From positions 3,456,001 to 3,520,000 of the forward strand of contig OZ241892.1 in the NCBI GenBank assembly GCA_965203485.1: DNA of 64,000 nucleotides, read 5' to 3'. The notes below the pieces were generated by a model. It did not search any database, had not been told where the DNA came from, and saw only the letters and a list, made by a program, of their open reading frames with translations. The stretch is from Longimicrobiales bacterium. GTDB taxonomy: Bacteria; Gemmatimonadota; Gemmatimonadetes; Longimicrobiales; Gaopeijiaceae. This document shows, one piece after another, positions 13,989-45,009 of this stretch. The stretch's first letter is position 1; each line of letters opens with the position of its first letter. A program made the translations under genes and the position numbers.

Positions 13989-14049
13989 CCCTGCTTCGTC
14001 CCCCGGGGACCGCTTCCGGCGGCCGGGCACGTTCCCCCTCGCAAGCAAG

Positions 14050-15075
14050 ATGACGCGCTTCTCCCCTGCACGGGCCTTCTCGGCCTTTGCCTTCTCGGCC
14101 GCGCTCGCGGTGGCCGTCTCCGCTTGCGGATCCGACTCCGACGTCGCTCGCGGGAAGCTCGTCTTCGACGCGTGCTCGCCTTGTCACGGCGACGACGGAG
14201 CAGGCGACCAGCTCCTCGGAGCGCCCGCCATCGCCGGCGCCGATCCGTGGTACTTGAAGATGCAGCTGGAGCGCTTCCAGGGGGACGGACGGGTCTACCA
14301 GCGCGGCTACCACCACATGGACGAGGGCGGCCTGAGGATGCGCCCCATGGCCCGCGTGCTGCGCACCGAAGCGGACCTCGACGCCGTGGTTGCGTACGTC
14401 GCCGCCTTGCCGATGGCGGATCCGCCGCCGACGGGCCACGGCGACGCCGAGGCCGGCCGGGAAGAGTACGCCCGCCTGTGCGCGAACTGCCACGGCGACG
14501 ACGGGCGGGGCGCGCAGGACCTGAGCGCGCCCTCGCTGCTGCACCTGAGCGACTGGTACGTCGCCTCGTCGCTGCGGAAGTACCGCGACCAAGTGCGCGG
14601 CGCCTCCCCCGGCGACGCGGCGGGCGCCACGATGCGGGCTCCCGTCGCCGCCTTCTCCGATGCGCAGATCGACGACGTGACGGCCTATGTCGTCAGCATG
14701 CCGAGGCTGCCCCGCAAGATCGCCGTCGCGGGCGCCGCCCCGCCGCCGTTGCCGCCGCTGGACGTGGACCCCGCCGTCCTCCCCGAAGGCGTCACCGCCG
14801 AGATGGTGGCGGAGGGCCAGGACATCTTCCACGGCGCTGGCATCTGCCTCACCTGCCACCTGCGCGGCGGCGTCGGCGGCCCCTTGGCGCCCAACCTCGC
14901 GGACGACGTCTGGCTCAACATCGACGGCGAGTACGAGTCGATCGTGGGCATCGTCGAGACCGGCGTTCCCCAGCCCGTCGAGCACCCCGGCATGATGTTG
15001 CCGCGGGCCGGCGCCGCGCTGACCGACGAGCAAGTGCGCTCCGTCGCCGCGTACGTGTTCGCCCTGAGCCGGTGA
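14050..15075 (+). CDS. Tri-heme c-type cytochrome lipoprotein (c4-like diheme plus an extra c domain)
   Basis: Lipobox AVSAC; heme motifs CSPCH, CANCH and CLTCH. Confidence 0.9.
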   Translation: MTRFSPARAFSAFAFSAALAVAVSACGSDSDVARGKLVFDACSPCHGDDGAGDQLLGAPAIAGADPWYLKMQLERFQGDGRVYQRGYHHMDEGGLRMRPMARVLRTEADLDAVVAYVAALPMADPPPTGHGDAEAGREEYARLCANCHGDDGRGAQDLSAPSLLHLSDWYVASSLRKYRDQVRGASPGDAAGATMRAPVAAFSDAQIDDVTAYVVSMPRLPRKIAVAGAAPPPLPPLDVDPAVLPEGVTAEMVAEGQDIFHGAGICLTCHLRGGVGGPLAPNLADDVWLNIDGEYESIVGIVETGVPQPVEHPGMMLPRAGAALTDEQVRSVAAYVFALSR

Positions 15076-15080
15076 CCGCC

Positions 15081-15257
15081 ATGGACGCCAACCTGTCCCA
15101 CCGCCCCACGCACGCCGAACTGGCCGCGCAGATTCCCGCCCCGCCGCCGGACGAGGAGAACGAGTCCATCCAGTTCGCCAAGAAGACGTTTCAGTGGACG
15201 GCGTTGCTCGTCGTCCTCTTCGTCGGCGCGGCGGTGGTGTACACGATGCTGATATGA
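15081..15257 (+). CDS. Small single-TM membrane protein of the oxidase operon
   Basis: 58 aa MDANLS...WTALLVVLFVGAAVVYTMLI, filling the gap between the cytochrome gene and coxB. Confidence 0.6.
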   Translation: MDANLSHRPTHAELAAQIPAPPPDEENESIQFAKKTFQWTALLVVLFVGAAVVYTMLI

Positions 15258-15324
15258 CCAAGAAATCGGCCTGCGCCCGCGCGGCGGCCGTTCGGGGGCC
15301 GGCAGCCCCCTCGACGAGCCCTTC

Positions 15325-16017
15325 ATGATCGACACGAACTTCTTCGCGGGCCTCATCGACGCCGCATCGTCCTACGCGGGCGAGATCGACTTCCTGATTC
15401 TTGTCGTGCTGGTGTCCGTCGGCATATGGTTTATCGCCGCCGAGGCCATCTTCTTCGGGTTCATTCTCAAGTTCAGGGCCAAGCCCGGGCGGAAGGCCGA
15501 GTACATCGACGGCAAGAACAAGCGGCACAAGCGATGGGTGACGTATCCTCACTTGGCGGTTCTAGCGTTCGACGTCGGCATCATCGTGATCTCGTTTCAG
15601 GTGTGGCACCACGTCAAGCTGGACCTTCCCGACCACCCGGATTCCGAGATACGGATCATCGGCCAGCAGTGGGCCTGGACCTTCCAGCACCCCGGCGCCG
15701 ACAACGTGCTGGACACGGACGACGACATCTTCAAGGTGGACGAGCTCCACGTCCAGAACGACAAGACGTACCTGTTCCAGCTCGAGGCCAAGGACGTGCT
15801 CCACAGCTTCTCCGTGCCGGTCTGGCGGATCAAGCAGGACGCGGTTCCCGGCCGCCGAATCACCGGCTGGTTTCAGCCGACGGAGACGGGCGTCTTCGAT
15901 GTTCAATGCACCGAGATATGCGGCTTCGGCCATGGCGTGATGAAGGGGGAGGTGTACGTGGAAGACGCCGACGAACACGCTGCGTGGATTTCGGCCAACG
16001 CGCCGGCTGCCCCGTAG
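15325..16017 (+). CDS. coxB: Cytochrome c oxidase subunit II (CuA)
   Basis: Two TM helices, GQQWAW, DVLHSF, CTEICGFGHGVM. Confidence 0.93.
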   Translation: MIDTNFFAGLIDAASSYAGEIDFLILVVLVSVGIWFIAAEAIFFGFILKFRAKPGRKAEYIDGKNKRHKRWVTYPHLAVLAFDVGIIVISFQVWHHVKLDLPDHPDSEIRIIGQQWAWTFQHPGADNVLDTDDDIFKVDELHVQNDKTYLFQLEAKDVLHSFSVPVWRIKQDAVPGRRITGWFQPTETGVFDVQCTEICGFGHGVMKGEVYVEDADEHAAWISANAPAAP

Positions 16018-16046
16018 CTTAAGCGACTTAATGGAGGTGCCGACCC

Positions 16047-17771
16047 ATGGCTGAACCCGCTGTCGCGCCGGTCTCGCCGGCCCCCGCCCACGAGGAGGAC
16101 CACGCGCATCACGGTCCCACGGGGTGGCTGAAGTACGTCTGGTCCACGGACCACAAGGTCATCGCCATGCAGTACATGTTCACGGGCATGTTCATGGCGC
16201 TGGTGGGCGGGTTCATGGCGTACGTGTTCCGGATGCAGCTTGCGTTTCCCGGCGCGGAAGTCTTTCCCTTTGGGCTGGTGTCGCCGGGGGAGTACAACGC
16301 GCTGGTGACCAACCACGGAACGATCATGATCTTCTGGGTGGCCATGCCGGTGCTGCTGGCCGCCTTCGGGAACTACCTGATTCCGCTCATGATCGGAGCG
16401 GACGACATGGTCTTTCCGAAGATCAACCGGCTGTCGTTCCAGGTGTTCTTCGTCAGCACGATCGTCATCCTGGCGTCGCTGTTCGTGGAGGGAGGAGGGT
16501 TTGCGGGCGCGTGGACGGCCTATCCACCGTTGTCCGCCAGCGCCGAGTACAACCTCACGGACCTGGGCAGCACGCTGTGGCTGATCGGGGTGGGACTGGA
16601 GTTCGTGGCGTTCCTGCTGGGGGGCATCAACTTCATCACGACGCTCATGAACTCGCGGGCGCCCGGCATGCGCGCCTTCGACGTGCCCGTCGTGGTGTGG
16701 ATGATCGTGATCGCCAGCATTCTGTTCATGCTGTCGGTGGGGCCGCTCCTGGCCGGCGCCGTCATGCTGCTCTTCGACCAGACGCTCGGCACGGGCTTCT
16801 TCGATCCGGCGGCGGGCGGCGACCCGATTCTTTGGCAGCACCTGTTCTGGTTCTTCGGGCATCCGGAAGTGTACGTGGTGCTGTTGCCCGCCATGGGCGT
16901 CGTGGCTGAGATCATGACCACGTTCGCTCGCAAGAAGCTGTTCGCCTACCGCACGGTGATCTTCACCGTCGTCGCGACCGGCGTGCTGAGCTTCTTCGTG
17001 TGGGCGCACCACCAGTTCATCGCTGGAATCGATCCGCGCATGGCGAACGTCTTCACGATCACGACGTTGCTCATCTCCGTGCCGATCGCCGAGCTCTGCT
17101 TCGTCTACATCGCCACGCTGTACGGCGGATCGATCACGCTCAACACGCCCATGCTCTGGGCGCTCGCCTTCATCGCGGAGTTCCTGATCGGCGGGGTGAC
17201 GGGCATCTTCCTGGGCGCGGCGGGAGCGGACATCTACTTCCACGACACCTACTTCGTGCTGGCCCACTTCCACTACACGTTCTTCCCAATAGCCATCATA
17301 GGCACCTTCGCCGCGTTCACGTACTGGTTCCCGAAGATGTTCGGCAAGATGATGGACGACCGGTTGGGCAAGATCCACTTCTGGGGCACCATCATACCCT
17401 TCAACTTCATCTTCATCCCGCTGTTCGTGCTGGGCATGGGCGGACAGCACCGGCGCATCTACAACTACGACCACTTCCCGGAACTGGCCGGCGACAACTT
17501 CCAGTTGATGAGGGTGATCGCCACCATTTCACTGCTGGTGATGCTTGCATTCCAGCTCGTGTTCTTCTACAACTGCTGGAAGTCGTGGCGGGCCGGGAAG
17601 CGAGCGTCGAAGAACCCGTGGAAGGCCAACTCCCTGGAATGGACCACGGAATCTCCGCCGCCTCACGGCAACTGGCGTCCCGACGATATGCCGGTCGTCT
17701 ACCGCGGGCCCTACGAGTACAGCGTTCCGGGCCGGGACGACGACTACTGGCCGCAGAACTCGCCCGCCTGA
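16047..17771 (+). CDS. coxA: Heme-copper oxidase subunit I, A1-type motif
   Basis: STDHK, NHGTIM, WFFGHPEVY, WAHH, HDTYFVLAHFHY, HRR; GGAGG RBS. Confidence 0.95.
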   Translation: MAEPAVAPVSPAPAHEEDHAHHGPTGWLKYVWSTDHKVIAMQYMFTGMFMALVGGFMAYVFRMQLAFPGAEVFPFGLVSPGEYNALVTNHGTIMIFWVAMPVLLAAFGNYLIPLMIGADDMVFPKINRLSFQVFFVSTIVILASLFVEGGGFAGAWTAYPPLSASAEYNLTDLGSTLWLIGVGLEFVAFLLGGINFITTLMNSRAPGMRAFDVPVVVWMIVIASILFMLSVGPLLAGAVMLLFDQTLGTGFFDPAAGGDPILWQHLFWFFGHPEVYVVLLPAMGVVAEIMTTFARKKLFAYRTVIFTVVATGVLSFFVWAHHQFIAGIDPRMANVFTITTLLISVPIAELCFVYIATLYGGSITLNTPMLWALAFIAEFLIGGVTGIFLGAAGADIYFHDTYFVLAHFHYTFFPIAIIGTFAAFTYWFPKMFGKMMDDRLGKIHFWGTIIPFNFIFIPLFVLGMGGQHRRIYNYDHFPELAGDNFQLMRVIATISLLVMLAFQLVFFYNCWKSWRAGKRASKNPWKANSLEWTTESPPPHGNWRPDDMPVVYRGPYEYSVPGRDDDYWPQNSPA

Positions 17772-17787
17772 GCCCGAGACGAGACCG

Positions 17788-18357
17788 ATGAGACCCATCG
17801 CAACCACCCGCGCGGCCACCGGCATCGCGACCGGGAAGCTGGCCGTCTGGTGGGTTCTGGCGTCCGAGGTAGTGATCTTCGGCGGCCTGCTGGCGTCCTA
17901 CGTCATGTACCGCTTGGGCCACCCCGAATGGGCCGACGCGGCCGCCGTCACCAACATGCAGATCGGCGCCTTCAACACCTTCGTGCTGCTCACGTCGAGC
18001 CTCACGGCGGTCTTGGCCCACCAAGCGGCCGAAAGGGGCGACGGCAAGACGGCGGCCAAGTTCCTGTACTTCACTATCCTGGGGGCGGCCACGTTCATCG
18101 GCGTGAAGACGTACGAGTGGTGGTACGAGATTTCCCACGGATACACCATCACCAGCAACACGTTTTGGGCCTTCTACTACTCCGCGGCCGGACTGCACGC
18201 CTTTCACGTGATCGCCGGGGCGGTGATCATGGCGTTCGTGGCGCGAGACGCGAAGCGCGGTCTCGAGTTGCACCGCGTCGAGCTCATCGGCATCTACTGG
18301 CACTTCGTCGACATCGTCTGGATATTCCTCTTCCCCCTGCTCTACATCGCGAAGTAG
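17788..18357 (+). CDS. coxC: Cytochrome c oxidase subunit III (short form)
   Basis: LASEVVIFGGL, NTFVLLTSS, GLHAFHV, YWHFVDIVW. Confidence 0.9.
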   Translation: MRPIATTRAATGIATGKLAVWWVLASEVVIFGGLLASYVMYRLGHPEWADAAAVTNMQIGAFNTFVLLTSSLTAVLAHQAAERGDGKTAAKFLYFTILGAATFIGVKTYEWWYEISHGYTITSNTFWAFYYSAAGLHAFHVIAGAVIMAFVARDAKRGLELHRVELIGIYWHFVDIVWIFLFPLLYIAK

Positions 18358-18360
18358 ACC

Positions 18361-19008
18361 ATGTCCGCTCACTCCGATCCCAGCGCCGGCTGGCTGTCCA
18401 ACCACTACGTCAAGGTCTACTTGGCGTTGCTGGTCTTGCTCGTCGTGAGCATCCTGGGCCCGGAAGTCGCGCCGCGGCTGGGCCAGGGCGAGATCCCCGG
18501 CGTGGGCATCCGCCTTTCAACGTTCGCCATGCTGGTCACCGCATTCGGGATCGCCGTGGTGAAGGCATGGCTGGTCGTGAAGAACTTCATGCACCTGTCG
18601 ATCGAGCGACCCATCGCCAAGTGGTTCCTCGCTGCTTCCGTGCTGCTGCTCGCGCTGTTCTGGGGCGGCATCGCGCCGGACGTGCAGAGCCATGCGGGCG
18701 CCAACTGGGAAAACGTGGCCGCTCGGGCGGCGGTCGAGCGGGGCATCGCGTCGCCCGACGATCACGCGGACGATCACGCCGCCGAAGCCGGTCGCTCGGA
18801 AGAAGCGGCCCCGCCCAGCCTGGTGCCGACCTCCAAGTCCACCGGGCACCTGCTTCCCGGCGGCTATAACTTCACGCACTTGGCGTTCTGGACCGTCGTG
18901 GCGCTCGTGGCCGTCGGCACCAACGCCGTGGCGATCATGCTGACCGTAGGTGCGGGCCTGCTGGTCCTGGAGACCGTGAAGGGCCTGCGCCGCAAGCGCG
19001 AGGCGTAG
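18361..19008 (+). CDS. Cytochrome c oxidase subunit IV-family protein with C-terminal extension
   Basis: YVKVYLALL...IAVVKAWLVVKNFMHL motif; operon position. Confidence 0.75.
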   Translation: MSAHSDPSAGWLSNHYVKVYLALLVLLVVSILGPEVAPRLGQGEIPGVGIRLSTFAMLVTAFGIAVVKAWLVVKNFMHLSIERPIAKWFLAASVLLLALFWGGIAPDVQSHAGANWENVAARAAVERGIASPDDHADDHAAEAGRSEEAAPPSLVPTSKSTGHLLPGGYNFTHLAFWTVVALVAVGTNAVAIMLTVGAGLLVLETVKGLRRKREA

Positions 19009-19029
19009 GCCTCGAGGCCCCCGGCGCCC

Positions 19030-19626
19030 ATGTCCGCCGACTCTTCGGTCATTCCGTTTCGGCCGCGTCCTAGTCGGGCCGACAGAGTCGCGTCGAACGG
19101 CGTGATGGGCATGGTCCTGTTCATCTTCGTCGAGGTCATGCTCTTCGCCGGCTTCATTTCGGCGTTCGTGATTGTGAAGGCGCGCGCCCCCGGCTCCGTG
19201 TGGCCGCCGCCGGGCCAGCCGCGCCTGCCCTTCGAGCGCACCGCGCTGAACACGACAGCGCTGGTCGCGAGCGGCGTCGTCCTGTTGCTGGCCCACCGCG
19301 CGTTTCAGCGAGGCAAGACGGACGTCGGCGGATGGTTGCTGCTCGCCACGGCGCTGGGCGGCGCCTTCGTCGCCCTTCAAGGCGCGGAGTGGGTCGCGTT
19401 GCTGGGCGAGGGCCTGACGCTCACGTCTTCCACCTACGGCAGTCTGTTCTACACGATCATCGGCGCCCACGCCCTGCACGCGGTCGTGGCGATCGGCGCG
19501 CTGGCGTGGGCTTGGACGCGGCTTCGGGCCGACCGCTTGACCAAGGAGACGCTGTCGACGGTGGCCTTGTTCTGGTACTTCGTCGTGCTGGTCTGGCCGT
19601 TCCTGTACTTCCAGGTGTACTTGTAG
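19030..19626 (+). CDS. Second cytochrome c oxidase subunit III paralog
   Basis: FIFVEVMLFAG, LNTTAL, GAHALH, WYFVVLVWP. Confidence 0.85.
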   Translation: MSADSSVIPFRPRPSRADRVASNGVMGMVLFIFVEVMLFAGFISAFVIVKARAPGSVWPPPGQPRLPFERTALNTTALVASGVVLLLAHRAFQRGKTDVGGWLLLATALGGAFVALQGAEWVALLGEGLTLTSSTYGSLFYTIIGAHALHAVVAIGALAWAWTRLRADRLTKETLSTVALFWYFVVLVWPFLYFQVYL

Positions 19627-19630
19627 GGCG

Positions 19631-19858
19631 ATGAGGGGACGCGGCTTCGCGGCGACCGTGGTTGCGACGGCGGCCTTGCTCGTGCTGGCTCCGGGCGAGG
19701 CGTGGGCGTGTCCCGTGTGCTTCGACCGGGACGACGAAGCGCGCATCGCCTTTCTGGCCACGACCGGACTGCTGACCCTGTTGCCGCTGGGCATGGTCGG
19801 CGGCGCCGTGGTATGGGTGCGGCGAAGGGCTCGGGGACAGGTAGGTGGTGATGGATGA
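19631..19858 (+). CDS. Small secreted/membrane protein with CPVC motif
   Basis: Signal peptide ending AWA, then CPVC and one TM helix; 4 bp after the coxC paralog. Confidence 0.65.
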   Translation: MRGRGFAATVVATAALLVLAPGEAWACPVCFDRDDEARIAFLATTGLLTLLPLGMVGGAVVWVRRRARGQVGGDG

Positions 19859-20264
19859 GAAGAATGCCAACATGGGGGCGTACTGGCGAAGATCAGATGT
19901 CGTCTGATGCAACCACTTTGCGGCTTTTGGTATCGACGGAGATATCGGACTCGCGAATCCTAGTCAGCGGTCTCTATCGAGACTACACCGCAGCTGGTCG
20001 TAGAATGCAGATCGGCCGCTTGATTCGCAGGCGAGGATCGTCGCCGTGGACGCATTTTGAAAGTGTGAATAGCGACGATCTGAAGGAAGGCCGCAACGCG
20101 TAGATGCGCCCCTCGTTGTCCATGGCGCGCATGGCGGACGCACCAGCCGTGTGACGCGCTGAGTTTGCAAGCATGTTCGATTCGAGAAGCGCACTCTGGC
20201 ATCAAGCAATCCGTGGATGTCGCTTTTCCGTGACCTACGCCGCTTAGGCGCCGAAACGCCGGCC

Positions 20265-31755: not shown

Positions 31756-33051
31756 TTGGCCAAGGCCAGTAGGTTGCTAGTCTCCTTCGCCGTTACGAAC
31801 TGGGCCTGCTTCCGGGATCGGCAGGAACTCTCCGCCGAGGCCGTGGGCCGGACTGGCGACGCTTTCGCGTTCGACACGGGCGTACGCCGGATTCCTCGGC
31901 TCAATCGCGTGACCGCCGTCTACGGCGCCAACGGCAGCGGCAAGTCGCGCTTGTTGCAAGCGTTGGGATTTATGAAGGAATACGTCGTGGGTTCTGCGAA
32001 GAAGGGTCAGGCGGGAGACGACATCGGCGTCGTGCCATTTCTCTTCGACGCGAAGACGAGGAAGCAACCAACAGTCTTTGAAGCCTGTTTCATCACCAAC
32101 GACGGGATCGTGTATGATTATGCGTTCTCAGTAGACGACAGGCGGGTCCACGAAGAACGACTGTCGTGTTGGATGCCTGGGAGCCGCAGACGCGGATTAT
32201 TGCACCGCAAGTATGACACGGTAACCGCAGTAGAAGAATGGCGTTTCGGCGCAGCGGTTCGGGGCCCAAAATCTGTTTGGCGATCCAGCACGCGTGAGAA
32301 TGCACTCCTTGTTTCGGTGGCCGCGCAACTGAACAGCGATACGTTTCGCCCGGTCGTCGATTGGTTTCAGCGTTTGGGTTTTGTCACGCCTAAATATCCA
32401 GGTCCTACGTACACGGCATCGAGAATTGCCGTTGAAGATGAATTCCGAATAAGAGTGATGAACCTACTTCGAGACGCAGACATTCACGGCGACGCTCTCG
32501 AAACTCGAAAAACGAGCGTTGCGGTAGATGATATCCGTCCTCATGTGGCACCAAGCTTGCTGAAGCAAGTGATTGAAAAAGGCAAATCCACATTCGACGT
32601 GATCGATACTAGCATCGTGCACCCCGTGGCTGGTGATGCCACGCCGTGTGCATTGGACATGACTGAAGAATCGGATGGAACTCAAAGACTCTTTTTGCTG
32701 GCTGGACCTTGGCTCGATGTGCTTGACAACGATCGCATCGTAATTGTTGATGAACTGGACAGCAGTCTGCATCCGTTGTTGGTGACGGCGTTGGTGAGAA
32801 AGATCAACGAAGGGAACGGAAGACCTGGCCGGGCACAGCTCGTGGCAACGCTTCACGACGTGTCGCTATTGCGCGGTGTTTTCCATAGAGGTCAAATTTG
32901 GCTTGCTGAGAAGACGAGGAACACTGGCGCGTGCAGGATTAAGGCGTTGTCCGATTATCGTCGCCGCCGTAAGGAGGAAGTCATGACTGACTACCTAGAA
33001 GGACGATTTGGAGGCGTACCAGTGATTGCCGGATCGAATTCGGCGGATTGA
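31756..33051 (+). CDS. ABC-type ATPase (RloA/AAA_21-like)
   Basis: YGANGSGKS Walker A, ESDGT signature, IVDELDSSLHP Walker B, ATLHD H-loop, YLEGRFGGVP terminus. The start could be TTG 31774. Confidence 0.85.
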   Translation: MAKASRLLVSFAVTNWACFRDRQELSAEAVGRTGDAFAFDTGVRRIPRLNRVTAVYGANGSGKSRLLQALGFMKEYVVGSAKKGQAGDDIGVVPFLFDAKTRKQPTVFEACFITNDGIVYDYAFSVDDRRVHEERLSCWMPGSRRRGLLHRKYDTVTAVEEWRFGAAVRGPKSVWRSSTRENALLVSVAAQLNSDTFRPVVDWFQRLGFVTPKYPGPTYTASRIAVEDEFRIRVMNLLRDADIHGDALETRKTSVAVDDIRPHVAPSLLKQVIEKGKSTFDVIDTSIVHPVAGDATPCALDMTEESDGTQRLFLLAGPWLDVLDNDRIVIVDELDSSLHPLLVTALVRKINEGNGRPGRAQLVATLHDVSLLRGVFHRGQIWLAEKTRNTGACRIKALSDYRRRRKEEVMTDYLEGRFGGVPVIAGSNSAD

Positions 33052-33071
33052 AATCACTGCTGAGGATATAA

Positions 33072-33707
33072 GTGAGCAAGAAGCGACGACGGTGGGGAAG
33101 ACGAGCGGCGACCAAGGACGTTGCACCACGGATACTTATATTGTGCGAAGGAGCAAAAACGGAAATCACGTACTTCAACGCAATCAAGAGATCTCTTCAA
33201 ATTCCAAGCATGGATATCAAGCACTGCAAAGGAGTGAAAGGTGTGGTGGCGTATGTGAGTGACGACAAGATAGGAAATTTTAATGAGATATGGTGCGTTG
33301 TGGATCACGATGAGAGATATGAAGATGTACGAGTTTTGATTGATCGCATAGAAATGATACGCAAACGACGCCGAAAGCGATACGAATTGAACAGAATAGA
33401 GACGATCATATCCATCCCATGCTTCGAATACTGGTTACTACTTCATTTCGAAAACATCACCAGAGCATATAGAGGACTCCCAGGCAGGTCCGCATGCAAA
33501 CAAGTAACGAAGCAATTGGAAAAGCACTTGCCTGGCTACGATAAGGCGGATCCTCATATCTACGACGTTTGCTACGACTACTTGGAAACGGCAATTGAGC
33601 GTGCGAAGAAGAACCGCGAGCCTTCGCATTCCTCGACTGATGTGTGGAAGCTGATCGAACGGCTTCAGAATATGGTGCGTGATGACACGTGTGGCGTTGA
33701 TCACTAA
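33072..33707 (+). CDS. rloB: RloB-family protein
   Basis: ILILCEGAKTEITYF, IWCVVDHD, SIPCFEYWLLLHF, YDK, AIERAK, STDVWKLI. Confidence 0.85.
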   Translation: MSKKRRRWGRRAATKDVAPRILILCEGAKTEITYFNAIKRSLQIPSMDIKHCKGVKGVVAYVSDDKIGNFNEIWCVVDHDERYEDVRVLIDRIEMIRKRRRKRYELNRIETIISIPCFEYWLLLHFENITRAYRGLPGRSACKQVTKQLEKHLPGYDKADPHIYDVCYDYLETAIERAKKNREPSHSSTDVWKLIERLQNMVRDDTCGVDH

Positions 33708-42545: not shown

Positions 42546-45009
42546 ATGAAGACATCCTCTTTTTCCGTTCGCCTGTTCTATAGCTATTCTCACAAGGACG
42601 CTCAATACCGAGATGCCATGGAAGATGCCCTCAGTTTGCTCAGAACCCAGGGGCATTTGACACAGTGGTCGGATAAAAACATTCTGCCCGGTCATAGAAT
42701 CTCAACGACTATTGGGCAGGAAATGGAGCAAGTCGATATTGTCGTTTTCTTAATCAGCAATTCATTTTTGGCATCAGATGAATGCATGAAAGAATGGAAG
42801 CGAGCCAAAACGATGCACGTTGCTTCCCACCGACCACTTCGTGTTCCGATTATCGTCAGCACATGTGCGTGGAAGGATTTGCTTGTCGAAGACGATATAA
42901 AGGTGTTGCCGAATGACGGAAAGCCCGTGAAGACGTTTAGCGATTCTGATGCGGCATGGAGCCAAGTATATGAAGGCATTAAATCACTCATTGACAGCTT
43001 GCGAGCGGATTTTTCGCCAAAGACCCGATTTATGACACAACTGCGGAATATTGATGATGTCGTCGTTTCACAACGAACAAGTACGCTAGATGACCTCTTT
43101 GTATTTCTCCCGCTATCAAACTACCAGCCTAGCAAGATTGAAAGGCACGCAGTTGACGAAAAAACCATAACGAACTTAGACAATCTTTTGCGATTGGGTC
43201 ACATCCTTATCCACGGCGACGACCAAAGTGGCAAGACGGCGCTTGGCCGGTACATCGTTTTGTCGCTGATCAATAAGGCGCAGCCTGTCCTTCTTGTCGA
43301 TCTGCAAGTGGTTAAGATAGCTAGTGATATTCGATGATGTTCTAGCAAAGGTATATCATGATCAATTTCGTGGCGATTACATGAAGTGGCGCGACTACCA
43401 ACACACAACCATTGTGCTCGACAATCTGTCGTCCAAGCCTGCATCGATACCCTTCCTGACTGCTGTCCTGAGCAGATTCGATAACGTTGTTGTGTTAGCA
43501 TCCACCAACACATATGTGTCTTATTACCGCGATGACGCCCGCTTGGCGACGTGCACTATTTTGCAGATTTCTCCGCTCACACACGTCTTGCAAGAAGAAT
43601 TGATTCGAAAACGACTTGCCTTGATGAGTAACAGCACGGTGTATGACGGTGCCGTTGATCAAATAGAAAAGCGAGTCAATGCTATCATTAACACTAGAAT
43701 ATTGCCACGATATCCGTTCTATGTTCTATCGATTCTTCAGACACTTGAAGCATTCATGCCACGAGATATGGCGGTTACATCACATGGTCATTGCTACTAC
43801 ATCTTTATTGTAGCAAGACTAATGAATGCAGGCATTTCCAGGGGTGATGAAGCCATCAATGTGTGCTTAAATTTTGCGGAACAATTGGCGTTTGCTATTT
43901 ACAGTCATAACTCGACCGAGCAACATTCGTTTTCCCGATCGGCGTTTGATCGGTTTGTCGCTGACTATAAGAAGCAATATGTCTTGCCAGACTCTATTCG
44001 GCACAGATTGATTGGTCGAGATTATGGCATTTTGGCCGATGACGGCAGATTCCAGCATCCCTACATGTACTATTTCTTTCTCGGGCGGTACTTGGCCGCG
44101 CACGAAGACAATCAAATAATTGAGCAAATGTGTCGGGACAGCCATGTGTCGGAAAACCATTTGACGTTGCTTTTTATAATACATCACGCGACAAATGATG
44201 AAATAATTGAAGAAATCCTGATCAGAACGATGTGTTCATTGGACAACATTCCGCCAGCGCGTTTGAATCCGGAAGAAACAAAACGGTTTCGAAGTATCGT
44301 TGCGCGATTACCGACTGACATCCTTTCTGGTCGTTCAGTGGAGGACGAGCGAAAAGCCGACCGACGTACACGTGACGGTGACGACAACGAAAATGAAGTG
44401 GACAATAGATCCGATCATTCGGTTAATCGAATGATATACCAAATATTGAAGAACAACGAACTGTTGGGTCAGGTATTAAAGGTGAGATATGGCAAGCTCA
44501 CCAAAGGACAAATATCAGATATTGTTGAATCGATTGCAGACAGTGGACTACGGCTCGTGAACGTGTTGCTGAGCGACGAAGACGATATATCCGAGTTAGC
44601 GCGATATTTGCACGCCCGTGTCCCCAATTTATCTGAATCGAGAATCAAGAAATTGTTGCAGGGAATGTCGTTCGTGTGGACAATGATCAATATTGAACTT
44701 GTGGTGAATGCCGTGTCACACAAGGATATCGCACCAATAGTTCGCGATCTGGTTGAGAAGAGAGCAAATCCAGCTTATGACGTGATCGGATTTTTCTGCG
44801 CCTTGGATAGTGCAAATGAATTGACGTCGAACTTGCGAAGAGAACTGAGGAAGCTACTGAAGCGGCACGACGATTCGTTTGTTCGAGGCGTATTGTCGCT
44901 CAGAGTACAACATTATATGAATACACATAGGAGTAGTGCAAAAATCGAACAAGGCATTTGCGCGGATCTTGGAATAAGATATCGACATCGCATTATGGCG
45001 GCACAATAG
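42546..45009 (+). pseudogene. TIR domain + P-loop (STAND-like) NTPase, split by a frameshift near 43330
   Basis: ORF1 42546-43337 has TIR (LFYSYSHKD, FLISNSFLASDECMKEW, VPII) and Walker A GDDQSGKT. ORF2 43324-45009 has Walker B-like IVLDN and FQHPYMYYFFLGRYL. Removing one base fuses them into about 820 aa. Confidence 0.75.

Follow-up and report, generated by a model that had tools for sequence, protein, structure and literature searches.

It has long been asked why A-family oxidases need a K channel in addition to a D channel that can carry most of the protons. According to two sources, mutants in the K-channel lysine are blocked in reduction of the oxidised site (PMC12901375, PMC8079940). 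K-less A-family oxidases as such are not new, and K-less subclades of both A1 and A2 type have already been listed (Degli Esposti et al., 2021; PMC8239418 Table S1, Fig. S7 table). These include the A1 "KC channel" subclade, with Elusimicrobia, Ca. Calescamantes HR19, and Methylacidiphilum, and a separate "Oligoflexia" K-less subclade (PMC8239418). For acidophilic iron oxidisers (Acidithiobacillus rus operon), a preprint describes K-less A2-type oxidases that have lost K354 and COX2 E78 and kept the D channel (bioRxiv 2020.03.01.968255). In the C family (cbb3), the KC channel is lysine-free, and the equivalents of positions 300, 319, and 327 (helices VI-VII) are polar.

The oxidase analyzed here is encoded in a window of 64,000 nucleotides, the whole stretch of DNA that was analyzed, from a Longimicrobiales bacterium (assembly GCA_965203485.1, contig OZ241892.1). 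It carries a P-x-A-E motif in helix VIII of subunit I and is herein referred to as the PxAE oxidase. The following genes were found at the locus:

14050..15075, + strand: tri-heme cytochrome c (three CxxCH motifs, at 42, 144, and 266; Pfam PF00034/PF13442)
15081..15257, + strand: small ORF of 58 aa, read from its sequence as having a single C-terminal hydrophobic helix
15325..16017, + strand: coxB, subunit II with CuA site (230 aa; PF00116; PDB matches)
16047..17771, + strand: coxA, subunit I, A1-derived, without canonical K channel (574 aa; PF00115, 444.7 bits)
17788..18357, + strand: short COX3 homolog a (PF00510)
18361..19008, + strand: prokaryotic COX4-like subunit with C-terminal extension (PF03626; TIGR02229 slightly below cut-off)
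19030..19626, + strand: short COX3 homolog b (PF00510)
19631..19858, + strand: small conserved membrane ORF with CxxC

Both coxA and coxB are intact ORFs. Among 20 clade loci (L001-L019 and L036), the tri-heme cytochrome c gene was found upstream of coxB in 19, the exception (L017) being cut off, and none was detected beside coxAB in the L100-L113 subgroup. Its product is the probable electron donor to CuA. The two small ORFs had no Pfam or NCBIfam match; in the same 20 loci, homologs of the first were found only in L001 and L004, and homologs of the second follow cox3b in 13. The COX3 doublet is kept across clade loci. This doublet is shared with the operon of A1 subtype a-III (PMC6431628); for that subtype the K channel is given as intact, whereas the PxAE enzyme has none and the tri-heme cytochrome c heads its operon. 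The Rfam search of the window gave zero matches, and promoter and terminator scans of it gave chance-level signals only.

Residues are given in R. sphaeroides numbering, set via a canonical relative aligned to 6PW1/6CI0 (CoxA offset +12, helices II-X). The positions that distinguish the PxAE oxidase, or are retained in it, are as follows:

15526..15528, + strand: CoxB H68, at the E101 (K-channel entry) position
15550..15552, + strand: CoxB H76 (P108+1), PxAE-specific
15571..15573, + strand: CoxB D83 (W104+12, about G116 counted without gaps), helix 2, a carboxylate predicted to be buried
16599..16601, + strand: CoxA E185 (S197 position), helix IV, in the serine zone of the D channel
16860..16874, + strand: CoxA HPEVY, with CuB ligand H284, E286, and cross-linking Y288
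16905..16910, + strand: CoxA A287 and E288, the lost K-channel residue (S299>A) and an acid at position 300
16965..16991, + strand: CoxA T307/T311/S315 (positions 319, 323, and 327), a hydroxyl stripe of helix VII
17076..17078, + strand: CoxA S344 (A356 position), helix VIII, the best tracker of lysine loss across A-family lineages
17082..17105, + strand: CoxA PIAEL (17082..17096) to V, with T359>I, I361>E, K362>L, and S365>V
17178..17180, + strand: CoxA E378 (L390 position), helix IX, Glu in most but not all members
17277..17279, + strand: CoxA T411 (V423 position), helix X, adjoining heme ligands

The fold of CoxA is the 12-helix fold of canonical A1 aa3 oxidases (R. sphaeroides 1M56/2GSM, P. 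denitrificans 1AR1, M. smegmatis 6ADQ, and C. glutamicum 7QHM): its AF2 model (pLDDT 93.6) has 12 long helices and matches aa3/bo3 oxidases in Foldseek with TM-scores of 0.83-0.88. Sequence identity to these oxidases is ~37-40%, with shared six His, HPEVY, D132/N139/E286, and a CuA subunit II. The PxAE enzyme lacks their S299, T359, K362, and S365, has a relaxed subunit II E101 site, and gains E197, S356, E361, T319/T323/S327, Q335, T423, and the His and Asp of subunit II. Its operon also adds the tri-heme cytochrome c and the COX3 doublet.

Helix VIII of CoxA aligned with solved A-family chains without gaps (HMMER). This alignment confirmed the earlier note, which had read PIAEL, T359>I, K362>L, S365>V, and a new Glu361 by hand, and it placed neither Lys nor Thr at the CoxA K-channel positions; position 360 is also changed (G360>A). 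E361 was found in 55 of 56 PxAE loci, the exception being L015 (Puniceicoccaceae bacterium K14), which has Ile there, and K362 in none of the 56. The note had further suggested that the K channel is lost in both subunits. For CoxA this stands, with S299 as an additional loss (0/55 PxAE vs. 86/86 Lys-bearing). In CoxB the alignment (H68 = E101, W71 = W104, P75 = P108) does place His at the entry position, but across the clade this site is relaxed rather than lost, with Glu in 19/51 members vs. 75/75 of the Lys-bearing outgroup. The unusual His and Asp that it had seen in the CoxB helix are conserved in the clade: H76 is present in 51/51 PxAE and 0/15 sister-grade sequences, and D83 in 51/51 and 15/15, respectively. 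Its claim that the D channel, the Tyr, and the His ligands are retained is correct for D132, N139, N121, N207, Y33, S142, E286, Y288, and H102/284/333/334/419/421 (R481/482 are kept as well) and does not extend to the serine zone, which reads S197>E, S200>A, and S201>F. HPEVY is present in all 55 covered PxAE sequences, and the CuA ligands of CoxB (H160, C195, E197, C199, H203, and M206) are all kept and are invariant or near-invariant in the clade.

Position 300 is E/D in 120 of the 121 nearest homologs. In helix VII of PxAE proteins, position 319 is T/S in 55/55, 323 is T in 51/55, and 327 is S in 55/55; Ile323 is found in 85/86 Lys-bearing proteins. Position 319 is a published wall position of the K pore, whose width is set by P358-A319 and M316-K362 (PMC9687966). 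T423 was found in 55/55 PxAE, 17/17 sister, and 0/86 Lys-bearing sequences. A Glu361-Glu390 dyad was rejected as the core substitute: it is invariant in the 121 nearest sequences, but in the 56 PxAE loci of the wider clade position 390 is E in 36, A in 12, T in 5, S in 2, and D in 1.

The P-x-A-E motif was found in 121/121 rows (the query and its 120 nearest homologs), and the PxAE clade is well supported and spans at least five phyla, so the variant, whose possible uniqueness the earlier note had raised, is not confined to the source assembly. Contigs of four sequencing runs, all from one study that is possibly the source of the assembly, showed zero alternative letters or indels over 14000-19900, and dN/dS was ~0.10 against two relatives, with a third comparison saturated. 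Homolog conservation, run contigs, and dN/dS together rule out an assembly artefact or a pseudogene. In a plasmid search, zero clade members were found, all 1080 matched records being below 60% identity.

In the tree, rooted on two A2-type rows, CoxA sits in a 100/100 clade with Lys-bearing A1 sequences, in agreement with the A-family assignment of the earlier note. It scores 593 bits against NCBIfam CtaD_CoxA (TIGR02891), below the cut-off of 670.75, and matches ba3 at E 1e-8 to 1e-10 vs. 1e-120 for the A family. B-family oxidases lack the D channel and have a Thr/Ser/Tyr K analogue; here the D channel is present. The six His and helix VI Tyr, E286, the D channel, the CuA subunit II, and the tree placement are those of A1; since the A1 K-channel set (K362, T359, S299, S365, and II-E101) is not present, CoxA was filed as an A1-derived, non-canonical variant.

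The PxAE clade is nested inside a K-less sister grade that has Phe359, Leu/Met299, and Ala323, and no new charge in helix VIII. Glu361 occurs in 0/120 of this grade, which rules it out as the change that allowed the lysine to be lost. The PxAE lineage groups at 100/100 with L021 (Ca. Calescibacterium), and the phylum Ca. Calescamantes falls inside it. L021 matches the HR19 row of the published table (S291=F, K354=T, T351=F, E292) and belongs to the same starred clade as the PxAE enzyme. With the "KC channel" subclade (PMC8239418) the PxAE enzyme shares the A1 motif and the absence of K354, and it has Leu362 and polar E300, T319, and S327 at the KC-equivalent positions. That subclade is a sequence classification, and the columns of the Fig. 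S7 table omit Glu361, Ser356, Glu197, and the CoxB His/Asp; none of its rows combines A1 Ile/Leu/Val at T351 with Leu/Met at K354, the PxAE state. The likeness to the C family is by analogy only, since the PxAE enzyme has the catalytic Tyr in helix VI, a D channel, and CuA. The Acidithiobacillus oxidases belong to a different lineage and, unlike the PxAE enzyme, keep T351. A joining with the PSV group was supported at 84/66 in one tree and was not recovered in the paired CoxA/CoxB tree.

Two residues were found to track lysine loss. Ser356 was present in 56/56 PxAE, 18/18 sister, and 0/86 Lys-bearing loci. In a wider set, mostly 50%-cluster representatives and largely separate from the loci in which the pattern was discovered, Ser/Thr356 was found in 30 of 31 sequences with a hydrophobic residue at 362 and in 1 of 96 Lys-bearing ones. 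A carboxylate in CoxB helix 2, counted at W+3 to W+14 from W104, was found in 51/51 PxAE, 15/15 sister, 9/10 other K-less, and 0/75 Lys-bearing sequences, and on the paired CoxA/CoxB tree in 35/36 K-less vs. 0/38 Lys-bearing; the alignments put a gap of ~4 residues at D83 in the Lys-bearing sequences. In L070/L074 and L078 the acid is likewise at W104+12, although the soluble domains of their CoxB most resemble those of acidobacterial, Lys-bearing CoxB (59 and 83%, respectively). An acid at subunit I position 353, on the same helix stripe as 356, was found in 10/31 hydrophobic-362 vs. 0/96 Lys-bearing sequences. Ser356 alongside Lys362 occurs in C. glutamicum 7Q21 and in P0170, P0258 is a hydrophobic-362 lineage without Ser/Thr356, and the K>Q lineage is mostly without Ser/Thr356 and without the CoxB acid. 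The K>Q fusion type was also sought in 121 genomes, with no matches, but the cut-off was so strict that this result is uninformative.

On the careful tree about 9 independent K-to-hydrophobic changes were counted at 362. For S356, a position chosen after a scan of all helices, the starred (well-supported) branches gave 5 pairs, 4.8 concordant and 0 opposite (p ~0.06); the CoxB acid gave p 0.25. None of the careful-tree tests reaches 0.05, and the quick tree gave p 0.03-0.06. As judged from these sequence comparisons, Ser/Thr356 and the CoxB helix-2 carboxylate appear to track lysine loss, and Glu361 is a late addition. In literature queries, which were mostly without host taxa and are thus weak evidence, no PxAE motif, Ser356, or CoxB helix-2 carboxylate was found as a K362 substitute.

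Two COX1-family genes were found in the source genome, the other being NOR-like and without the Tyr. The genome also has CtaA and an ACIII-like (alternative complex III) cluster, and no cytochrome bd was found in it. In 27 family relatives carrying the PxAE oxidase, bd was found in none, the PxAE oxidase was the only Tyr-bearing heme-copper enzyme found in 26, and it was the sole COX1-family gene in 13. Thus, it appears to be the only O2 reductase of its host.

Given the residue states, conservation, tree order, and genome context observed, the reading we favor, at roughly even chances, is that the enzyme reduces O2 and has a rewired proton site on the K side. The enzyme would be a working aa3-type cytochrome c:O2 oxidoreductase, with O2 activity and heme type presumed, most likely receiving electrons from alternative complex III and the tri-heme cytochrome c as its putative donors. 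The D channel would supply the pumped and most of the chemical protons. The job of the lost K channel is to deliver or charge-compensate the Tyr288 proton while the oxidised site is being reduced. This job most likely falls to a substitute polar site made up of Ser356, one turn above the lost Thr359 in helix VIII, and CoxB Asp83 from helix 2, a candidate K362 substitute. Helical arithmetic and the expected packing suggest that these two would be neighbors and that protons would pass there. By the same arithmetic, W104+12 lies ~22 A along the CoxB helix from E101, and the E101-Y288 distance is ~22 A in MD of the canonical enzyme in R. sphaeroides numbering (PMC9687966). In the PxAE clade the site would most likely be reloaded from the cytoplasm, the presumed side, by one of two ways: the old pore with a new hydroxyl lining (acid 300, Thr319, Thr323, and Ser327) or, where helix VIII meets CoxB, a pair formed by Glu361 and CoxB His76. 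The sister grade has bulky Phe359 and Ala323, so such a pore is not a general solution. A broader and more tentative proposal is that one convergent module may have replaced K362 between five and about nine times in the A family. It would consist of Ser/Thr356 and a carboxylate level with Tyr288, provided by helix 2 of subunit II or by position 353 of subunit I, and form a second, lysine-free route to protonate the catalytic Tyr, to which the PxAE clade would add a Glu361/His relay opening a cytoplasmic path along the subunit I-II interface.

The earlier note had left open a rewired path, a D-channel-only enzyme, and altered chemistry or ion coupling. The rewired path fared best, and the main rival is supply through the D channel alone, which we regard as rather doubtful. 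The K side would be plugged, a D channel remodelled by the new Glu197 near Glu286, S200>A, and S201>F would deliver all eight protons, and Ser356 and Asp83 would do no more than adjust the pKa of Tyr288 or the potential of heme a3, or keep the two subunits joined. An acid at 197 is indeed present in 55/55 PxAE and 119/119 covered sister proteins and in none of 86 Lys-bearing ones, and Phe359, Leu/Met299, and the lack of a new charge in helix VIII of the sister grade point the same way. According to reviews, as few as one of the eight protons may travel by the K path (PMC12901375, PMC8079940), and K-less, D-retaining oxidases have been proposed (Degli Esposti, 2020). However, Glu197 is not the general answer, because the PSV, Oligoflexia-type, L070, and L078 K-less lineages carry Ser/Thr356 and the CoxB acid without an acid at 197; moreover, three sister members (L093, L098, and L099) have Ala197, and between the D-channel end and the Tyr a high barrier has been proposed. 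Supply from the periplasm, with the substitute site protonated via Asp83 from the P side, is quite improbable. Asp83 sits in the P-side half of CoxB helix 2 at roughly the height of Tyr288, 14/15 sister CoxB have a second Asp at W+16, and the N-side entry Glu is relaxed; PxAE members, however, lack the second Asp and gain N-side polar groups (E361, His76, T319, and T323), and P-side uptake is regarded as barred in working oxidases (PMC8079940). Such uptake would make one or two chemical protons non-electrogenic and lower the yield per O2.

Na+ coupling and NO reduction are both unlikely. A Na+ site built from Glu361, Glu390, and CoxB His76, with O2 reduction driving Na+ translocation, would account for several new hydroxyls and as many as three new glutamates in the membrane (197, 361, and 390), and we give this very little credence: position 390 is Ala in 12/56, the D-channel proton pump set is complete, and no Nqr or Rnf was found in the 95% complete source genome. 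Na+-type c rings carry a Glu-Ser/Thr motif, whereas the source ATP synthase c subunit has Glu-Gly. Slightly less credible still is altered chemistry, be it NO reduction, peroxidase activity, or a relic without catalysis. Canonical K-channel mutants retain only partial (peroxidase) activity, according to PMC10095113, but the PxAE oxidase is under purifying selection, it is the sole COX1-family gene in those 13 relatives, and the source genome has the separate Tyr-less NOR-like enzyme. In the heme-copper superfamily O2 reduction requires the Tyr, and loss of this redox-active residue is the mark of c/q/e/b/s/gNOR and nNOR (PMC11214002); here Y288 is invariant. Altered chemistry and altered ion coupling are thus disfavored by the intact Tyr288 and CuB ligands, the status of the enzyme as the sole O2 reductase found, and the search for Na+ cycle markers, which found none.

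A natural K362-less enzyme that is apparently its host's only O2 reductase bears on the purpose of the K channel. The cross-lineage comparison singles out two residues that nearly always accompany a change of the Lys to a hydrophobic residue, turning a catalogued oddity into a specific hypothesis testable by mutagenesis. If it is true, K362M in R. sphaeroides or P. denitrificans might be rescued by grafting both residues, which would reveal that purpose.

A paper on M. xanthus NmpR was set aside, as it concerns a true cbb3 operon. Many members of the PxAE clade carry the database label "cbb3-type", an annotation issue by which a high O2 affinity is wrongly implied.

The oxidase operon has the gene order tri-heme cytochrome c, small ORF, coxB, coxA, cox3a, cox4, cox3b, small ORF. 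The genes for both analyzed subunits are intact:

15325-16017, coxB, intact ORF
16047-17771, coxA, intact ORF

R. sphaeroides numbering, used here unless query numbering is stated, was set via a canonical relative (L058) aligned to 6PW1/6CI0, with an offset of +12 from helix II to X. CoxA helix VIII aligns to the solved A-family chains without gaps, confirming the substitutions previously read by hand: T359>I, I361>E, K362>L, and S365>V. S299 is absent as well. The earlier note had the K channel apparently lost in both subunits. This stands for CoxA; CoxB has His at the E101 position, but among oxidases with P-x-A-E in helix VIII (the PxAE clade) this site is relaxed, not erased, with E101 in 19/51 members vs. 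75/75 Lys-bearing operons. Retention of the ligands and D-channel residues was borne out: heme, CuB, and CuA ligands, Y288, E286, D132, N139, N121, N207, and R481/482 are all kept. The AF2 model of CoxA (pLDDT 93.6) has a continuous helix 330-358 and matches aa3/bo3 oxidases. The dN/dS is ~0.10, and no alternative letters were found in contigs of four runs, which belong to one study and are not independent of the source. Further clade-fixed polar gains in CoxA (query numbering) are Asn89, one residue before H90 (a heme a ligand), Arg128 and Gln132, close to the mouth of the D channel, Gln323 following the CuB HH pair, and His468 preceding the Arg pair; the outgroup's conserved helix XI His is Phe in the clade.

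The PxAE oxidase is real and conserved. Uniqueness of the variant to this assembly was refuted, the motif being present in 121/121 rows of the nearest-homolog alignment. The clade accounts for 20 of the 80 genome loci, with a common operon order as far as contigs extend and with titles naming Gemmatimonadota, Myxococcota, Bdellovibrionota, Verrucomicrobiota, and Eisenbacteria. The nearest members are Longimicrobiales (Gemmatimonadota; 85-88%). Additionally, 56 CoxA proteins were scored at ≥64% identity to the query, a group set by identity rather than motif that also draws on metagenome loci and on genomes of the order of Puniceicoccaceae bacterium K14 (19/201 match). E361 was found in 55/56 of these proteins, K362 and T/S359 in none, and S299 in 0/55; S299 and S/T359 were found in all 86 K362-bearing loci. 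Within the window's family, the clade oxidase was found in 27/50 sampled genomes vs. 1/100 in the order's other two families. The clade's distribution is patchy, suggesting possible transfer.

One PxAE operon (L008) groups with Myxococcota sequences, and its contig, which bears the title of a Klebsiella pneumoniae MAG, is probably mis-binned. The coxA gene of L036 is split across two frames, and the CoxA of L029, with substitutions at CuB His positions and K362, may be degenerate or mis-assembled. Many clade members, P0020, P0023, and P0051 among them, are annotated as "cbb3-type cytochrome c oxidase subunit I" despite A1 derivation; CoxA scores under the TIGR02891 cut-off.

With the intermediate L020 as query, 120 sister proteins were retrieved, all devoid of the lysine, with Phe359 in 119/120, Glu361 in 0/120, E/D197 in 119/119 covered, S356 in 120/120, and T423 in 119/120. 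In a tree computed after removing trait columns, PxAE rows form a single clade (support 100/100). This clade branches from within the Phe359 grade (34 rows, 100/100), to which Ca. Calescibacterium L021 also belongs, and the grade in turn sits in a clade together with Lys-bearing A1 enzymes. Because the PxAE clade is nested in a K-less grade without Glu361, the tree places lysine loss first; on this topology Glu361, CoxB His76 (51/51 PxAE vs. 0/15 sister grade), Thr323, and, mostly, Gln335 were gained afterwards.

Polarity shifts were scanned over all helices. The cleanest K-side gain was S356; E197 and T423 shift too, yet the remaining K-less groups do not share those shifts. In alignments of CoxB, Asp was seen at W104+12 (counted along CoxB helix 2), and both S356 and the CoxB acid were then tested beyond the clade. 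In a set of 143 rows, consisting mostly of 50%-cluster representatives and filtered for complete helix VIII, S/T356 was found in 30/31 rows with hydrophobic 362 vs. 1/96 with Lys; the other 16, polar at 362, were kept apart. Subunit I position 353 is acidic in 10/31 vs. 0/96. Once 41 Lys rows of mitochondrial-like type had been thinned out, the careful tree gave nine changes and five well-supported pairs, 4.8 concordant and 0 opposite (p ~0.06; bootstrap not quite settled), and a quick tree gave seven pairs (p 0.03-0.06). CoxB D/E within W104+3 to +14 was found in 51/51 PxAE, 15/15 sister, 9/10 other K-less, and 0/75 Lys-bearing rows, omitting those unaligned at W104 (3, 0, 3, and 4, respectively). 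Among the K-less rows, only L029 is without the acid, and its CoxA appears degenerate. Such Asp residues are present in an Oligoflexia-type K>F lineage and absent from the K>Q enzyme L185. In a 74-row paired CoxA/CoxB tree, the acid occurs in 35/36 K-less vs. 0/38 Lys-bearing rows, with six lysine changes but only four well-supported pairs, three in the same direction (p 0.25). The S356/carboxylate pattern is strong by counts and borderline after kinship correction, with site 356 picked post-scan.

In L078 and L070/L074, the acid occupies the same W+12 site while the rest of CoxB is closest to Lys-bearing neighbours, which favours convergence over transfer. Together with L159, these loci show that Acidobacteriota-type oxidases lost the lysine recently on two separate occasions, each time with Thr356 and, for loci with a CoxB sequence, the W104+12 acid; with their Lys-bearing relatives they form natural near-isogenic pairs. 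A different solution is seen in the P0151-P0246 group and L185, a large lineage in which position 362 is Gln or His. These enzymes often have acids near the N207 region of helix IV, and most of them lack S/T356.

K-less A-family oxidases are already catalogued. Enzymes retaining the D channel were reported in iron oxidisers (bioRxiv 2020.03.01.968255), and PMC8239418 describes A1 subclades without the lysine, "Oligoflexia" and "KC channel," the latter from Elusimicrobia, Ca. Calescamantes, and Methylacidiphilaceae. Since L021 of the Phe359 grade matches the HR19 row of its table, the PxAE oxidase probably falls in a lineage whose lack of the lysine had been recorded before. This table has no row with the state of the PxAE clade and no columns for 197, 356, 361, or CoxB His/Asp. 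The COX3 doublet of this operon recalls subtype a-III (PMC6431628), which, unlike the PxAE oxidase, keeps the K channel. The step beyond the catalogue is a signature shared across lineages, S356 together with a carboxylate, by which the role of the K channel becomes directly testable. No published description of such a substitute module was found in a literature search of limited scope.

In the genome that contains the window (G000; 3.56 Mb, 95% complete), two COX1-family genes were found. The second protein (L081) has no Tyr four residues past the first CuB His and is therefore NOR-type by the Tyr criterion for O2 reducers (PMC11214002). Two loci are relevant here:

G000:C1:2483249-2488838, NOR-type heme-copper operon L081, without catalytic Tyr
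G000:C1:2762000-2768400, ACIII-like cluster: penta-heme cytochrome, 1091-aa Fe-S protein, NrfD, mono-heme cytochrome

Besides a short CuA subunit II, the L081 operon has genes for an SCO-like protein and an Rrf2-like regulator, together with a divergent cytochrome b-ferredoxin fusion that is the sole PF00033 match in the genome. The L081 enzyme is presumably an eNOR. The ACIII-like cluster is likely the quinol oxidiser feeding the PxAE oxidase from upstream. CtaA is encoded, and no bd oxidase was found in this genome. Of the 27 family relatives with the clade oxidase, 13 encode it as their sole COX1-family gene and 11 add just the same Tyr-less enzyme. Other NOR/NOD-like enzymes accompany it in two relatives and cbb3 in one; bd oxidase was found in 0/27. 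Together, these gene contents point to a working O2 reductase, probably the host's only one. A relative of the window's family encodes a COX1-family protein without the first CuB His (L191, G127:C34:70183-71403), by its look presumably of the NO dismutase type.

In the PxAE clade, Thr or Ser occupies positions 319, 323, and 327, and the residue at 316 is smaller, so hydroxyls were gained on the old pore wall. Position 323 presumably equals human I280. Human I280 is described as an active-site disease position (PMC3706435). In K-channel MD, P358-A319, M316-K362, P315-E101, and P315-S365 serve as channel widths, and E101 lies ~22 Å from Y288 (PMC9687966). By helical arithmetic, 356 and 353 fall on one stripe, 361 and 365 on another, and CoxB W104+12 ~22 Å above the E101 position. 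At the K entrance, a cavity is bordered by helices VII and VIII and by CoxB helix 2, and carboxylates introduced there rescue E101 mutants (PMC10095113). Of the eight protons, the K path may deliver just one, in the reductive phase (PMC12901375, PMC8079940, PMC7196763).

The earlier note left a rewired path, a D-channel-only enzyme, or altered chemistry or ion coupling. On these grounds we favour rewiring, to which we give an even chance: S356 and the CoxB Asp would form a substitute proton or charge-compensation site, refilled through the re-lined pore or through E361/His76, in either case from the cytoplasm. Delivery by the D channel only, through E197, would be a distinctly weaker candidate, and proton supply from the periplasm is rather unlikely. 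Na+ coupling is very improbable: a search for Nqr/Rnf in the 95% complete genome found neither, and the ATP synthase c subunit is without the Na+ motif, both of which argue against it. Altered chemistry is, if anything, slightly less probable still.

Elsewhere in the window, three low-GC islands (43-53% GC vs. ~69%) were found:

480-1427, low-GC island
31972-33707, low-GC island
42546-45009, low-GC island

An NCBIfam scan, applied to island 480-1427 only, gave no match. By sequence and motifs, the island ORFs presumably represent an AAA ATPase paired with an RloB-type protein, and a TIR-like protein next to a partner.
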